64,000 bases of DNA, taken from assembly GCF_055900595.2 (NCBI RefSeq), contig NZ_CM148325.1; one strand, written 5' to 3'. The notes beneath the pieces were generated by a model that was given only the letters and a program-made list of their open reading frames with translations, was not told the DNA's origin and did no database searches. Positions 8,469 through 61,590 of this stretch are shown piece after piece. Numbering within the stretch: the first letter of the stretch is position 1; each line of letters begins with the position of its first letter. The translations under genes were made by a program, and so were the position numbers.

Positions 8469-8819
8469 AGTAAATAGCTGACTTATGGATGTGCTGGGGA
8501 TTCTATGTATTTAGCTGTGGCTTTACCATTACTTTTCCCGTTTTTGACTTAAATAGCAATTTACCCACCAATTCTTGCTGAACATCTATACTTTTTTTGT
8601 ATTTTTATGCGATTCATTGATTTCCGCAGTACGTGCAGTAAGGAATCGCGGAGCAACAGTGAAAGAATATTGTTGCTAATGATTTTATTTGATTGATTTC
8701 TTTATTGAAAAACAACGATGTGCTTAAAAATCATTCGGATCGGATTGCCGCGAAAGAAGTGATACACTAGCGCGTCAATATCAGTACGGTATCAGTATTC
8801 AGGTAGCTGTTGAGCCTGG

Positions 8820-8831
8820 GGCGGTAGCGTG
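8820..8831 (+). promoter_or_regulatory. ops element (GGCGGTAGCGTG) in the waaQ leader, expected RfaH recruitment site within a JUMPstart-like region
   Basis: Exact ops 12-mer read about 50 nt upstream of waaQ start. Confidence 0.8.
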
Positions 8832-36408: not shown

Positions 36409-36435
36409 GATTGTTGATCTGGTGCGCCTTATTTT

Positions 36436-36520
36436 GCCGGATGCGGCGTGAACGCCTTATCCGTCCTACAGGAATGTGCTGAATCATCCCGTAGGTCTGA
36501 TAAGCGCAGCGCATCACGCA
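36436..36520. repeat. REP/BIME element
   Basis: gccggatgcggcgtgaacgccttatccgtcctac and gtaggtctgataagcgcagcgcatcacgc. Confidence 0.7.
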
Positions 36521-36551
36521 ATTTGGCGTTTACCCATTCTTTAATGGATCA

Positions 36552-39500
36552 TTACCACTGAATACCGGCACCGAGTGCGGCGGAGTATTCACCCTGGCTA
36601 TTGGTACTACCTTGTAATTTGTAGACCCAACGACCATTGGCGCTCACCATCGACACACCTAAAGCAACAGCCGATTCGCCGTTGTAAGTACCACCACCAA
36701 TAGAGGCCATGCTGGCTCCCGGCGTGTAAGCCTGCGGCAGACCGGTCATTGCCATTGCGGAAGCGATACCACCGCTCAACTTGCTTTCGGTTTTGGACAG
36801 TTTGTTATCCATCTCAACCATGCGCTGATCGGTGTATTGCTTCGTTTCCTGCACACTTTGCTTCAACTGTGCATAGTTCACTGCGTCGTTGTTGTTCACG
36901 CCCGCAGAAACGTTGCTGATGCGAGTCGTACCGCCATTGCCGCCACCGAGAGTGATGTTGCTGTAGTCGATAGAGCCATCAGCTTTGGTGTCGTAGCGAA
37001 CGCCACCTGCTTCGGAAGACTTCAGTTGCGAAACGTTAACCGCATCGGTGGCATTAACACCGGCAGCAACGTTGGTGATACGGCGCTGGTTGGTAGAAGA
37101 ACCCACAGAGATTGTGTTTTCTTCGTTGGCCACGGAGCCTGTACCCAGAGCGACGCTGTTGTCAGCGGCAGCAATGGATCCAGAACCAATCGCCACACTG
37201 TCTTTACCCTGGGCGTTAGCATCTACGCCATCGGTGTTGGTCTTGAAGTACTTGGTGCTACCTGTGGTTACGATATCGCCAATACCGTTCTCGATATTGG
37301 TCACGCGAGTATCCAGATTCGTCACCTGATTGTTCAGGTTAGTAATGCTCTGGGTATTCTGGGAAACCTGCGCATCCGTTACTTTCAATTGACCCACGTT
37401 GACCGCATCGGTATCAGCCGAACCAGCCGCGACGTTGGTGATCTGACGTTGACCGTCTTCGCTACCTACGGAGAATTCACCCACAGAGTTCTGCGGTGCA
37501 TCCATGTTGTAGGCGGTGTAGCCAGTTTGTGCGCCACGGGTAGTTTGAGAACCATTACCCATTGCAATGCTGTTTGCATGGTTTGCACGCGCGTTGCTAC
37601 CGATAGCAATACCGTTAATCGCATCTGCCAGAACTAAAGTGTTCAGGCCGATACCAATACCTGCATTACCATTAACGATGGTTTTTGCGCCCATTGCCAG
37701 CGAGTCTTCACCGATTGCCAGTGAGTCTTCAGCCGTTGAATTGGCGTGATAGTATTTGGTTGGCGTGGTGGCTACTGCACCAATGGCATTCTGCAACTGG
37801 CGAACCGTAACGGCGTCATGGGCTTCAGAACCATCGGCAACATTGATGATTTGACGATATTTACCATCGTCACCGATCGACAATGCGCCAAGCAGTTCAC
37901 CGTCAGTTGTGTCATAACCAATCACAACACCTTCTTCCGATACGCTGGTGTCACGAGAACCTTTAACTATTAAACGGCTGGAAACGGAACTGCTACCCAG
38001 AGCGATACCTGTATCAACGTTGCTGTAACTGTCCTGACCGATGGCTACACTGCTGGCACGAGAGGCAACAGCGTTATAACCCACAGCGGTAGCACCAATA
38101 CCTGAAGCGCTGGCATCGTTGAATGCTAAGCCGTTGTCGTTGGTACGCACATAGTTAATACCCGCGCCATTTTCTTCGATGTAGGTTTCACTGGTGTTAC
38201 CGGCAAGCTGATTGATGACTTCGCTGTTCTGCTGGATCAGCATATTGGTGTTAAACAGCTGAGAACCGTTCACTGCATCGGTGCTACCTTCACCAATGTT
38301 ACCATCAGCAACGTTTGTGATAATGCTGGCCTTGCCGTCATGACTGGCGTTGTAAGCCCCTTCGCCGTTATTGGCGGTCGCATCCCACAGCAGCGCGTTC
38401 TCATCAAGCGCATCCAGAGCGTCACCGACATTGTTGTACTCGGCATTCGCAATGGTGTAAGTCGGCGCAGTGATAGTACCGTCAGCGTTAACTTCTGCAT
38501 CACCGCCCAGAGCATCTGCGATATATTTATTAGTGGTATAGAGTTGTGAGCCGTTAATCGCGTCGCTGCTGGTGGCAGAGATTGCACCATTTGCGACGTT
38601 AGTAATCTTACTGGCAGTGTTATCTACCCCACGACCGGCGCTGAATGCACCAGCACCGTCATTGGCTGTTGCATCCCAGAGCAGGGCGTCATCCAGTGTG
38701 GTATCGATCGCTTCCAGTGCGTCACCAACGTTGCTGTAACTGCCGCCAGCGATGGCATAAGTCGGTGTGGTGATACTGCCGTCCGCATTCACCACAGCGT
38801 TCCCGCCCAGAGCATCGGCAATGTAGTCACTAACGCCATAAAGTTGAGAACCATTAATAGCGTCGCTACTGGTGGATGAGACTGCACCGTTTGCAACATC
38901 AGTGATTACACTGGGATCATTATTAATGCCGTGTTTGGCGCTGAATTTGCCTGCGGTTGTATCCCAGAGCAGAGCATCACCGAGAGAATCACTAAATGAA
39001 GTGTTAATCGCAGCCAGAGCATCCCCGACGCTAGTGTAGTCAGTGCCGCCAATACTATAGGTTGGCCCGGTTAATATACCTGTATCGCTAATATCAGCCC
39101 CACCACCCAGATAGGACGTGAATGAATCAGCCAAACCGTAAAGTTGTGAGCCATTAATGGCGTCAGTGCTGTCAGAGGAGACTATGCCAGCTTGTACGTT
39201 GCTGATTTTGTTGGCGGCGTTAGTGCCGTGTGCAGCGGTGAATGCGCCTGCGGCGTCGTCCCATTTCAGGGCGTCTTCACCGAGGTTAGTCACCGTATCA
39301 GTCAGGTTAGTGATATTGGTGGTGTTGGTCGCCACATCGTCCTTGGTCGCTTTCAGCTGAGAACCATTAACGGCGTCGGTGCTGGTGTCAGAGAGCTCGC
39401 CAGCGGTGACGTTAGTGATTTTGTTGGTGGCGTTGGTGCCGTGTGCAGCGGTGAATGCGCCTGCGGCATCGTCCCATTTCAGGGCGTCTTCACCGAGGTT

Positions 39501-41363
39501 AGTCACCGTATCAGTCAGGTTAGTGATGTTGGTGGTGTTAGTTGCCACGTTATCGTTAGTGGTTTTCAACTGAGAACCGTTAACGGCGTCGGTGCTGGTG
39601 TCAGAGAGCTCGCCAGCGGTGACGTTAGTGATTTTGTTGGTGGCGTTGGTGCCGTGTGCAGCGGTGAATGCGCCTGCGGCATCGTCCCATTTCAGGGCGT
39701 CTTCACTAAGGTCAGTCACCGTATCAGTCAGGTTAGTGATATTGGTGGTGTTGGTCGCCACATCGTCCTTGGTCGCTTTCAGCTGAGAACCATTAACGGC
39801 GTCGGTGCTGGTGTCAGAGAGCTCGCCAGCGGTGACGTTAGTGATTTTGTTGGTGGCGTTGGTGCCGCGTGCAGCGGTGAATGCGCCTGCGGCATCGTCC
39901 CATTTCAGGGCGTCTTCACCGAGGTTAGTCACCGTATCAGTCAGGTTAGTGATATTAGTGGTGTTGCCAGCCACTTCGCTCGTCAGGTTAGTGATGTTGG
40001 TGGTGTTTGCCGCCACATCGTCCTTGGTCGCTTTCAGCTGAGAACCGTTGACGGCGTCGGTGCTGGTGTCAGAGAGGTCGCCAGCGGTGACATTGGTGAT
40101 TTTGCTAGTGGCGTTGTTGCCATGGGCAGCGCTGTATTTGCCATTGGTTTGGTCCCATTGCAGAGTGTTTTCATCAAGTACAGTGAGCGCATCGCCAACG
40201 TTATTTTTGTTACCATTTTTTAAGTTGTAGGCGGGGGCTTTAACTGTACCGTCGTCAACGTTTACCGATGCGCCTCCACCCAGTCGTTTTGCTACCGAGT
40301 CGCTGATGGCATAAAGCTGCGAGCCATTAATGGCGTCATTGCTGTCAGCTTTGATGGTGCCATTTTTCACATTCACGATCTTGCGTTTTAATGAGTCATT
40401 ACCGACAGAAACGCTATCGTCCAGATCCGCAATCGAACCTGCCCCCAACGCGACGGCGTTAATACCGTTGGCGCTGGTATTACTACCAAGCGCAAGACTA
40501 TTATCGCCCGTGACAACACTGGTTTTACCTAAAGCAATAGAGTTTAAGCCACTCGATTGGCTACCATTACCCAGAACGATAGCATCTGTACCATTAGCTT
40601 TGTTGCCCTGACCTATGGCAATTTCGCTATCTGCCAAAGCCTGGCTGCCATTGCCCAATACGATAGTATTGGTTTTATCGGCAAGGCTCCCGGAGCCCAG
40701 CGCCATGCTATTAGTCCCTTTTGCCTTCGCATTATTGCCAATGGCGGTAGCATTTTCAGCGGCTTCGGTGTTAGTGCCCATCGCGATGGAGTCCGTTCCT
40801 GATGCATTTGCCAATCGTCCTAATGCAAGAGCATTAGCAGCACTTGCTACCGTATCTTTGCCCAACGCCATGGCACCTTCACCTTTAGCTTGAGCAGAAT
40901 TCCCCAGTGCAAGTGTATAATCGCTGGTCGCTTTAGCTGCACTGCCGATGGCGATAGCTCGGCTGCCCGTTGATACCGTTGATTGCCCTAAGCCAACCGA
41001 TCTTTCTCCTGATGAGTTACTTGAGAAGCCAATTGCCGTACTGCCCACCCCGGCGGTCGAACCTATTCCTACCGCAACACTTCCTGTATTCTCTGTTCCT
41101 GAACCCTTTGGCTCTGATGATGCGACAGCACCTTTACCAATGGCAATCCAGTCATTACTGAGTGGCGTTGCCTCTGCGCTTTTACCACCGTCAAGTGAAA
41201 CCGAAGCATTGGCCCCAACGGGTGAGAGTAGCCCACCCGCAACCAGCGCGGAAATTAACAGCTTACTACGCCCGCTCTTTTTTCCACGACTCTTCGCCGT
41301 TTCGCTGGCAACGCTATAGCTGCCCGTCGCTGGATTCCAGATAACTTTAAAAATTTTGTTCAT
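36552..41363 (-). CDS. trimeric autotransporter adhesin (YadA-like; UpaG/EhaG/SadA family), 1603 aa
   Basis: N-terminal extended signal peptide [21 protein letters not shown]...; long repetitive Ser/Thr/Asn/Gly-rich passenger with NGSQL-type head/neck motifs; C-terminal YadA-type anchor ending ...[36 protein letters not shown]. Confidence 0.85.
39166..40060. repeat. tandem array of about 4 copies of a 213-bp (71-aa) unit inside the adhesin gene
   Basis: Plus-strand artefact ORFs start at 39379, 39592 and 39805 (213-nt spacing) with near-identical translations; the adhesin shows repeated [71 protein letters not shown] blocks. Confidence 0.85.
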
Positions 41364-41406: not shown

Positions 41407-42090
41407 TTATTTTTTGTTTTTCCGCTGCTGAGTTTCAGCAGGTTGAACAGTGTCGAACTGGAGATTGGCCATATTGATGGACAATTTCAGATACTTCAGG
41501 TTATTAGGTGAAACGCCTTTTAATGTCAGGTTAATGTCTTGCCATTGACCAGGCATTAATTGCAGGGTGGAGTTCATGGTGGTGTTGAAAAGTAATTGTT
41601 GCCACTTCGACAGCGCTTTGGTATCGGTGGGTCTTTCACTGCCCCATGTGGCTTGAAAGCCAATATTTGATACGGGAACGCTTAATAGGTTGACCAGCGA
41701 AATACGAATAACGCTACCATTTTCAACTGCATCAATAGACAGCACCCGGCCTGCCAAACCAACCGAGCCATTGTTTAAAATGAAGTATTTTGTTTGTGCA
41801 GGGTTAAATTCGGTGAAGACAAATTCGTCCTGTTTGTCTTTGACCGCCTTTACTACACCCGCCAGCACTTTAGTGGTGTTTGCAATATTAATTTGTTGAT
41901 TTTCAATAAATTCTATCTTTCTTTTATATTGTTCTTGTTGTTTTTCAAGAATCTCTATTTTACTTTTTTGCAATTCTTGCTGTTTGGCAAGATCGTCGAT
42001 CAGATTCGCTTTCTCAATATAGTCACACCCAGTCAATACCCAGAGTGGCAATGTTATCAACATGCTTAATAGTGCTTTTTTGATGCTCAT
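41407..42090 (-). CDS. SadB-like inner-membrane lipoprotein encoded immediately upstream of the adhesin
   Basis: Signal peptide with LTGC lipobox and Asp at +2 (CD, inner-membrane retention); coiled-coil-like QQELQKSKIEILEKQQEQYKRKIEFIENQQ; ends 44 nt upstream of the adhesin start on the same strand. Confidence 0.65.
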   Translation of the reverse strand: MSIKKALLSMLITLPLWVLTGCDYIEKANLIDDLAKQQELQKSKIEILEKQQEQYKRKIEFIENQQINIANTTKVLAGVVKAVKDKQDEFVFTEFNPAQTKYFILNNGSVGLAGRVLSIDAVENGSVIRISLVNLLSVPVSNIGFQATWGSERPTDTKALSKWQQLLFNTTMNSTLQLMPGQWQDINLTLKGVSPNNLKYLKLSINMANLQFDTVQPAETQQRKNKK

Positions 42091-61504: not shown

Positions 61505-61590
61505 CAGGCTTGATAAGACGCGTTAAGCGTCGCATCAGGCAATGTGCACCCTACGTTGGATGCGGCGCGAGCGCCTTATCCAACCTACGG
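61505..61590. repeat. REP/BIME element overlapping the stop codon of the downstream GH127 gene
   Basis: aggcttgataagacgcgttaagcgtcgcatcaggca and ggatgcggcgcgagcgccttatccaacctacgg. Confidence 0.65.

Follow-up and report, generated by a model that had tools for sequence, protein, structure and literature searches.

Introduction

SadA of Salmonella enterica is encoded at the mtl–lld position with sadB upstream and contains, by its published description, "six consecutive repeats of 70-120 amino acids" that are 55 to >90% identical (PMC3953254, where SadB is described as well), and it is reported as strongly conserved in S. enterica (PMC7247748). For upaG, extensive sequence variation between strains is cited in PMC7247748 from Totsika 2012. 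The fibre length of BadA (Bartonella henselae) tracks gene length (PMC8859334), and repeat number is cited in PMC9704523 as modulating adhesion by Cha (Haemophilus cryptic genospecies). Periscope Proteins are variable-length monomeric surface rods, proposed to project a distal functional domain (PMC9704523, PMC8201768).

In the window, by which we mean the whole analyzed stretch of 64,000 nucleotides, there is an Escherichia coli adhesin gene that shares with SadA the mtl–lld locus, a sadB-type lipoprotein gene directly upstream and a module grammar of coiled coil, DALL2 and long neck. Unlike SadA, it has four far more uniform units of 71 or 85 amino acids, with 91.5-97% DNA identity, and the number of these units differs among near-identical strains. 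Locus and domain families are also common to the window gene and to UpaG, from uropathogenic, and EhaG, from enterohaemorrhagic E. coli. Over its C-terminal 885 residues the window protein shares 92-93% identity with proteins named UpaG, against only ~56% over the N-terminal 420 aa (P0080, P0084), and UpaG-type arrays use 78-aa (four-heptad) units, arranged as [78x4, 71], instead of the 71-aa units of the window; ehaG genes match ~65% of the window gene at ~83% nucleotide identity. Repetitive neck/stalk modules in a strain-variable number are a likeness to BadA and Cha, where recombination brings the variation about, although these belong to other genera and are built of other module types. 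BadA has ~30 modules and draws on neighboring pseudogene "toolbox" copies, while no such donor copies were seen adjoining the window adhesin gene.

The resemblance to Periscope Proteins lies in tandem repeats with high DNA identity and a number that varies among close strains (PMC9704523, PMC8201768): the units are 91.5-97.2% identical, and 1-4 or 3-8 of them are found on identical backbones. The gene nevertheless falls outside that class, as each unit contributes coiled coil, DALL and neck to a predicted trimeric fibre and the definition covers monomeric chains of independently folding domains, with trimeric autotransporter adhesins explicitly excluded (PMC9704523). Both the gene family and repeat-number variation are already known; what is described here is ordinary variation, an increment to a known phenomenon that involves no new mechanism.

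The adhesin gene and its locus

Two genes of the locus are considered:

36552..41363, minus strand: adhesin gene (open reading frame and translation, 1603 aa), a trimeric autotransporter adhesin of the UpaG/EhaG/SadA group
41407..42090, minus strand: sadB-type lipoprotein gene (DUF3251, SadB/YajI family), from its open reading frame and the annotation of the orthologue in L001-L008

The gene at 36552-41363 encodes a type Vc (trimeric autotransporter) adhesin of E. coli, in which an ESPR signal peptide and YadA-like head repeats are followed by a stalk of modular build and, at the C-terminus, an anchor of the YadA type. Pfam scanning of the window's own protein covered aa 301-821 and found PF05662 (YadA_stalk) six times, one per unit; the whole-protein families are those of the precomputed record of P0002, which is one amino acid away from the window protein, and include at the N-terminal side PF13018 (ESPR) and PF05658 (YadA_head), together with PF05662 and PF03895. 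Among PDB structures the protein matches the SadA fragments 2yo0, 2yo3, 2ynz, 2yo2 and 3zmf, the head-type entries 1p9h, 3s6l and again 2yo0, the Hia anchors 3emo, 2gr7 and 2gr8 (aa 1516-1603) and the YadA anchor 3h7x. By homology, the protein is predicted to be a surface-displayed obligate homotrimer with adhesive function. NCBI names on near-identical proteins are "YadA-like family protein" or "adhesin" rather than UpaG or EhaG, and an NCBIfam scan of the adhesin gave only sub-cut-off matches, to the Ata, Vomp, EmaA, BimA and YadA models.

The gene is a positional orthologue of UpaG, EhaG and SadA, from the mtl–sadB–adhesin–lld locus. The flanks of the window match mtlA, mtlD, mtlR, yibL and adjoining genes, the order at orthologous loci is mtlD-mtlR-yibT-yibL-DUF3251/SadB-adhesin-lldP, and E. 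coli genomes carry YadA-like, upaG and ehaG genes at this same locus. The sadB-type gene lies upstream of the adhesin gene at a distance of 43 nt, and the two probably share an operon.

Structure of the repeat array

The neck motif of the open reading frame 36552-41363 (minus strand) served to phase the units; the array and its surroundings have the following features:

39210..40103, minus strand: high-identity tandem array of four units, 894 nt, aa 421-718 (Tandem Repeats Finder and unit phasing)
39849..40103, minus strand: U1, aa 421-505, 255 nt, 85 codons, being the 71-codon unit with a 14-codon insert
39636..39848, minus strand: U2, aa 506-576, 213 nt, 71 codons
39423..39635, minus strand: U3, aa 577-647, 213 nt, with a "KTTNDN" patch
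39210..39422, minus strand: U4, aa 648-718, 213 nt
39924..40007, minus strand: two copies of a 42-nt (14-codon, two-heptad) segment within U1 (Tandem Repeats Finder period 42; alignment gap of exactly 42 nt)
39288..39441, minus strand: one arm of the 154-nt exact repeat, the longest in the array
39714..39867, minus strand: its partner arm, at an offset of 426 nt
40104..40382, minus strand: older diverged 93-aa module upstream of the array, aa 328-420 (neck spacing 93; repeat families D3 and D7)
38610..39209, minus strand: two older diverged 100-aa modules downstream of the array, aa 719-918 (neck spacing 100 and 100; repeat families D3, D5 and D7)

An earlier sequence-only reading had proposed about four tandem copies of a 213-bp unit in the adhesin stalk, each of 71 codons and therefore with a period divisible by three. 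This is borne out: there are four units, 213 nt equals 71 codons, the frame is kept, and Tandem Repeats Finder reports at 39196-39966 a period of 213 with 3.6 copies, 93% matches, 0% indels and a score of 1388, which is far above chance expectation. The same array had been placed at 39166-40060 (895 nt), which is shifted by ~44 nt from the phased span. It had also been called near-identical with very few substitutions; the identity is high, but the wording is slightly generous, as any two units are 91.5-97.2% identical and are separated by 6-18 substitutions over their 213 nt. Among the units 25 alignment columns vary, and of the variable codons 13 are synonymous only and nine change the residue. 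U3 differs by 4-6 nt from units found in other alleles, but by 15 nt from its own neighbors.

The repeat search of the window found array copies spaced 213, 213, 213 and 255 nt. An internal duplication of about 39 nt, previously put near 39950-40020, does exist, its size being 42 nt and its copies lying at 39966-40007 and 39924-39965, in the first unit by gene order on the minus coding strand; a second Tandem Repeats Finder call, of period 42 (1.9 copies, 87%), covers 39940-40020. With this duplication U1 has five heptads of coiled coil instead of three.

In each 71-residue unit a long neck is combined with a coiled coil of three heptads, which includes a VxxNTxx layer, and with a DALL2 connector (EDALKWDD...AAHG). 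A two-unit query matched SadA 2ynz, 3zmf and 2yo2 over coiled coil, DALL and neck, with 2YNZ aligned to the unit across 73 residues (E 9e-21). 2YO2, 3ZMF and 2YNZ are classed as DALL2 plus long neck (PMC4786415), and all three parts of the module have solved SadA homologues, as judged by sequence similarity. The units are heptad-quantised in length, following 48/50 + 7n residues, where n is 0, 3, 4 or 5. In the older module upstream, a neck and an insert domain precede a DALL-like end, and those downstream have a period of 300 nt.

Copy number among isolates

A comparison of copy number among isolates had been suggested as a check, and variation was found: public assemblies hold the window's gene with one, two, three or four units, with or without the 42-nt insert. 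The resulting series of alleles is 1390, 1447, 1461, 1532, 1589 and 1603 aa, of which those of 1589 and 1447 aa lack the insert. Assemblies with the 1390-, 1447-, 1461- and 1532-aa alleles include GCA_025328865.1, GCA_958306255.1, GCA_044142265.1 and GCA_046224305.1. Compared with the window, the alleles of the series show 1 nt of difference over the 3918 nt of gene that lie outside the array, and 0-4 nt over 6 kb of flanking DNA. Junction units of the shorter alleles are chimeras of parental units, which agrees with the prediction of recombination between repeats. Two downstream SNPs, absent from the four-unit alleles, are common to all four shorter alleles whose contigs reach far enough downstream (L010, L012, L013 and L015), so copy number follows haplotype. 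The 1461-aa allele was found on a contig of 5.76 Mb and the 1589-aa allele on one of 5.49 Mb, while the 1390-, 1447- and 1532-aa alleles came from contigs below 1 Mb only. The 1589-aa allele keeps four units, the first being a U1/U2 chimera, and is a conversion-type product.

The window gene, array included, equals that of L009 except for one SNP outside the array. An exact match to the window protein was not found, because of a substitution private to the window: codon 247 reads GAA (Glu), where each of the seven related alleles has GCA (Ala). An identical allele is likewise absent from 5426 E. coli RefSeq complete genomes, where the best match (96.4% identical across 85% of the query) is a gene of different architecture; a near-identical allele does occur on chromosome-sized contigs of a second assembly collection.

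On a second backbone, complete genomes carry four, five or eight units and draft assemblies three, and the 5- and 8-unit genes show no nucleotide difference outside the array. Altogether 7 of 36 backbones were polymorphic, with 1-8 units per protein, and every one of the 121 proteins examined was full length with its anchor. The earlier proposal that copy-number change would alter the stalk in frame is thereby supported, with 1-8 units on otherwise near-identical genes.

Discussion

From these results we consider it very probable that the array consists of four recently duplicated stalk modules, whose number has been changed by repeat misalignment, in a positional orthologue of UpaG, EhaG and SadA. 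Head-to-tail 213-nt units of 91.5-97% identity would permit misaligned homologous pairing, and whole units could then be gained or lost by unequal crossover, gene conversion or replication slippage. The array contains an exact repeat of 154 nt, its copies offset by 426 nt, and another of 127 nt, its copies offset by 213 nt, and the 154-nt pair is the likeliest site of crossover, or of assembly collapse, for the loss of two units. A change by whole units would leave both the reading frame and the coiled-coil register intact, and each extra module should lengthen the trimeric fibre by one rigid segment. The 2012 SadA fibre model of Hartmann is reportedly roughly 108 nm long. Scaling from that model and from BadA fibre data (PMC8859334), a unit may add ~4-5 nm. 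Stalk length might matter for the reach of the head past O-antigen or capsule, or for antibody recognition.

It is quite possible, if somewhat short of probable, that the variation is real and yet selectively neutral, a mutational by-product of modular repeats with no role in adhesion or immunity. A diversifying pattern is not obvious in the 13 synonymous-only and nine residue-changing codons, and fibronectin and collagen binding by BadA depended on expression and not on the observed differences in length (PMC8859334). Strict heptad quantisation and the in-frame state of all alleles seen speak against neutrality and indicate purifying selection for an intact fibre; it also counts against it that repeat number alters the adhesive activity of Cha, as cited in PMC9704523, and that the function of SadA is masked by LPS and fimbriae (PMC7247748). 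A stronger view, which we put forward tentatively and regard as rather doubtful, is that, in individual E. coli lineages, the array acts as a fast length rheostat for an adhesin made of trimeric coiled coils, selected by O-antigen or capsule depth or by antibody. Recombination between the 213-nt units would then reset the stalk by one module, or by one or two heptads within a module, on epidemiological time scales, with SadB holding the three repetitive chains in register. If true, the "periscope" principle would come to include trimeric autotransporters as well.

That the ladder of copy numbers is mostly short-read collapse and not biology seems unlikely, even though draft contigs of 20-200 kb make up most of those with these alleles. 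For the 1390-aa form the sources are one contig of 24 kb and one of 7 kb, the latter from a metagenome and named k141, the 2- and 3-unit forms are just those expected if assembly collapsed over the 154-nt and 127-nt repeats, and some shorter alleles could be such collapses. However, 4, 5 and 8 units occur on identical backbones among RefSeq complete genomes, contigs of chromosome size bear the 1461-aa and 1589-aa alleles, and collapse could not make the conversion-type 1589-aa allele; nor would random collapse yield the two flanking SNPs that go with the shorter alleles.

The sequence-only reading had named such arrays as frequent short-read collapse points, a caution justified by the 154-nt and 127-nt exact repeats, which are at least as long as usual short-read k-mers. 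Related alleles of other copy number exist too, so the four copies of the window might themselves be an artefact of collapse or over-expansion. We hold this to be very improbable, with the gene and array matching L009 but for the single SNP, and with U2-U4 identical in the allele on the 5.49-Mb contig. Collapse in the window's array, where copy number was read from the assembly, is unlikely because the same four-copy array is present in a protein of more than 100 assemblies (P0002, 103 indexed blocks, including a contig >1 Mb). An on/off phase-variation switch through slipped-strand frameshifting can practically be dismissed, as nothing beyond the presence of a repeat speaks for it, 213 nt and 42 nt are both multiples of three, all examined alleles are in frame and full length, and repeat searches found no short simple-sequence tract in the array, which is therefore no simple-sequence contingency locus.

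The gene family (UpaG, EhaG) is of practical interest both as a candidate for vaccines and as a marker for virulence typing. Because short-read assemblies give no reliable adhesin length, long-read confirmation is needed for allele calls, cgMLST loci and antigen designs that include aa 421-718. The ladder of 1-8 units on otherwise identical genes is a natural series for asking whether adhesion past O-antigen or capsule depends on stalk length.

A minor observation concerns the strand. The gene carrying the array lies on the minus strand, which corrects the earlier reading, and the plus-strand open reading frame at 39192-40223 (343 aa) was discarded as a gene, being an antisense reading of the repeat and itself periodic.

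Structure of the stalk repeat array

The sequence-only reading of near-identical 213-bp tandem repeats in the adhesin stalk was right overall, with the coding strand to be corrected to minus. At 39196-39966 Tandem Repeats Finder detected an array of period 213 (score 1388; 3.6 copies with 93% matches and no indels), and at 39940-40020 a period-42 repeat, and an independent seed-and-extend search gave copy spacings of 213, 213, 213 and 255 nt. The array is contained in a 1603-codon ORF (36552-41363, minus strand), where phasing on the conserved neck motif set the boundaries of four units and likewise returned the 71-codon period.

Stalk units of the adhesin, in gene order
39849-40103, minus strand: U1, aa 421-505, 85 codons
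39636-39848, minus strand: U2, aa 506-576, 71 codons
39423-39635, minus strand: U3, aa 577-647, 71 codons
39210-39422, minus strand: U4, aa 648-718, 71 codons

The units share 91.5-97.2% pairwise nucleotide identity with 25 variable columns, and their variable codons comprise 13 with synonymous changes only and 9 residue-changing ones. The "very few substitutions" first described hold as high identity, although each unit carries 6-18 of them. The internal duplication is also present, its size being 42 nt instead of about 39 nt; this is exactly the extra length of U1, and the two copies of the segment lie at 39966-40007 and 39924-39965. Unit lengths fall into classes of 48, 69/71, 76/78 and 83/85 residues, corresponding to a core of 48 or 50 residues plus 0, 3, 4 or 5 heptads, and because they step by heptads, length changes within a unit also keep the coiled-coil register. 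Compared with its own neighbours U3 shows 15 differences, but compared with units from other alleles only 4-6, which marks the array as a mosaic rather than a simple local duplication. A 343-aa plus-strand ORF (39192-40223), antisense to the array, has a periodic translation too; it was rejected as a gene and seems to arise from the codon content of the repeat.

Copy number among isolates

In the 120 relatives returned by a protein search, necks were phased and flanks compared. The window's backbone was defined by N-terminal 420 aa and C-terminal 885 aa at least 99.5% identical to the window protein, and DNA was compared for every array class found on it.

Array classes on the window's backbone (unit lengths in residues)
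85: 1390 aa, protein P0043, contigs of 24 kb and 7 kb
71, 71: 1447 aa, P0033, one 390-kb contig
85, 71: 1461 aa, P0025, 55 contigs, longest 5.76 Mb
85, 71, 71: 1532 aa, P0017, 5 contigs, longest 346 kb
71, 71, 71, 71: 1589 aa, P0015, one 5.49-Mb contig
85, 71, 71, 71: 1603 aa, P0002, 104 contigs, longest 5.3 Mb

Outside the array every class differs from the window at the same single nucleotide (1 in 3918 nt of the gene), and the flanks show 0-4 nt differences in 6 kb. The predicted in-frame change of copy number among isolates is therefore real, with one to four units on nearly identical genes. Junction units are chimeras: the one unit of the 1390-aa allele joins a U1 head to a U4 tail, while the 1589-aa allele, a conversion-type product, retains four units of which the first has a U1 head and a U2 tail. 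The single nucleotide is in codon 247 (gene nt 740, window 40624, head region), which is GAA (Glu) in the window and GCA (Ala) in 7/7 related alleles. This private non-synonymous change is why the exact window protein was not found in the protein collection. The adhesin allele was also not found in RefSeq complete E. coli genomes, where the best match covered 85% of the query at 96.4% identity and the mtl-side flank was at most 99.0% identical; the allele is nevertheless present in over 100 draft assemblies. Its lineage seems poorly sampled by complete genomes.

Complete genomes with a second backbone have 71-aa units in differing numbers, eight in strain 2013C-4282 and five in EC26, with zero nucleotide differences in 4173 nt outside the array; WL297 has four units and other assemblies three. 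Another allele of this backbone, P0034 (1711 aa), has the array 71, 36, 71, 71, 71, and its in-frame truncated 36-residue unit suggests occasional out-of-register crossovers inside a unit. Overall, 7 of 36 backbones were polymorphic, with 1-8 units per protein, and a U2 query matched 1-8 places per genome in 149 RefSeq complete genomes.

The warning that such an array is a short-read collapse point is justified for some draft alleles. The longest exact repeats are 154 nt (426-nt offset) and 127 nt (213-nt offset), over which short-read graphs can collapse, and since the products would be exactly two- and three-unit forms, some draft-genome alleles may be artefacts. A purely artefactual ladder is made unlikely by four, five and eight units in different complete genomes, by the 1461- and 1589-aa alleles on chromosome-sized contigs, and by the conversion-type 1589-aa allele, which collapse could not produce. 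Copy number also tracks haplotype, because two downstream SNPs, lacking in four-unit alleles, are common to the shorter alleles at loci L010, L012, L013 and L015, the four whose downstream sequence was long enough. The window gene, array included, equals that of the related locus L009 except for one SNP outside the array, and its protein counterpart P0002 has entries in 103 blocks of the collection.

Mechanism and function

Units are gained and lost in frame with chimeric junctions, which misaligned pairing of the 213-nt units in recombination or replication would produce. In E. coli, tandem repeats of this size are subject to both RecA-dependent unequal exchange and RecA-independent slippage, while mismatch repair works against exchange between copies 3-8% diverged. 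Scaled from BadA fibres (155-243 nm for 2920-3973 aa; PMC8859334), each unit would extend the stalk by ~4-5 nm. By analogy, stalk length may affect head projection: SadA is masked by LPS and fimbriae (PMC7247748), and adhesion altered by repeat number is cited for Cha in PMC9704523. Grin et al. proposed a role for SadB in holding three repetitive chains in register (PMC3953254), a need that a near-identical array would sharpen.

One Pfam YadA_stalk match starts every unit. Read directly, the coiled coil consists of three heptads (VATNTTN / ITNLTDT / VTNLGED), and the 14-residue insert of U1 adds two more (VAANTTN / ITNLTSE), the first again with the V-x-x-N-T-x-x pattern. This pattern is reportedly, after Hartmann and co-workers in 2009, an ion-binding N-at-d layer. 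A two-unit query matched SadA 2ynz (E 9e-21 over 73 residues) in an alignment starting in the coiled coil and running through '...DAL.WDD..GAF.A.HGT..TNKITNV.AGE...' (10 further letters not shown), and also 3zmf and 2yo2; all three are given as DALL2 connector plus long neck (PMC4786415).

Identity of the gene and its locus

The flanking DNA is E. coli chromosome (42000-50000 matches mtlA, mtlD, mtlR, yibL and neighbours, at most 99.0% identity), and related complete genomes have the order mtlD-mtlR-yibT-yibL-DUF3251/SadB lipoprotein-"YadA-like family protein"-lldP. The adhesin gene sits 43 nt downstream of a sadB-type gene, in the position that PMC3953254 gives for sadBA in Salmonella, Shigella and Escherichia.

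41407-42090: sadB-type lipoprotein gene

The adhesin matches the solved SadA fragments 2yo0 (E 2e-139), 2yo3, 2ynz, 2yo2 and 3zmf, its C-terminus matches the Hia and YadA anchors, and P0002, one residue off the window protein, has Pfam ESPR, YadA_head, YadA_stalk and YadA_anchor. The gene shows all testable defining features of the SadA/UpaG/EhaG positional group of trimeric autotransporter adhesins. Some genomes label the orthologues upaG or ehaG; NCBI names the window's allele class only "YadA-like family protein". Judged by sequence, it is a distinct allele class within the group: over the N-terminal 420 residues it shares ~56% identity with UpaG-named proteins, and it is built of 71/85-aa units in contrast to the 78-aa units of UpaG type.

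Repetitive SadA stalks, upaG sequence variation and trimeric adhesins whose repeat number differs between strains have already been described (PMC7247748, PMC3953254, PMC9704523, PMC8859334). The array behaves like Periscope Proteins but falls outside their definition, which excludes trimeric adhesins (PMC9704523). The repeat finding is real, was rightly interpreted and is ordinary; the clean ladder of units on near-identical genes and the unit lengths that step by heptads amount to tidy increments and no surprise.

Several other elements were observed. The sadB-type gene contains a weak 42-nt-period repeat at 41893-41992 (Tandem Repeats Finder, 2.4 copies, 75% matches), which may be the coiled-coil heptads of that protein. 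The stretch from the stop codon of the adhesin gene to lldP contains a REP/BIME-like palindromic element (36434-36530), then a hairpin and T-run; the element has many matches in each E. coli genome (median 16 places for the whole query), and loci L003 and L006 of relatives have an annotated IS621 transposase gene in the same intergenic region. Rfam placed a JUMPstart element at 8793-8831 (plus strand), just upstream of a plus-strand ORF run that is presumably the waa LPS-core operon, and an naRNA4 (CssrE) element at 61507-61585 (minus strand).
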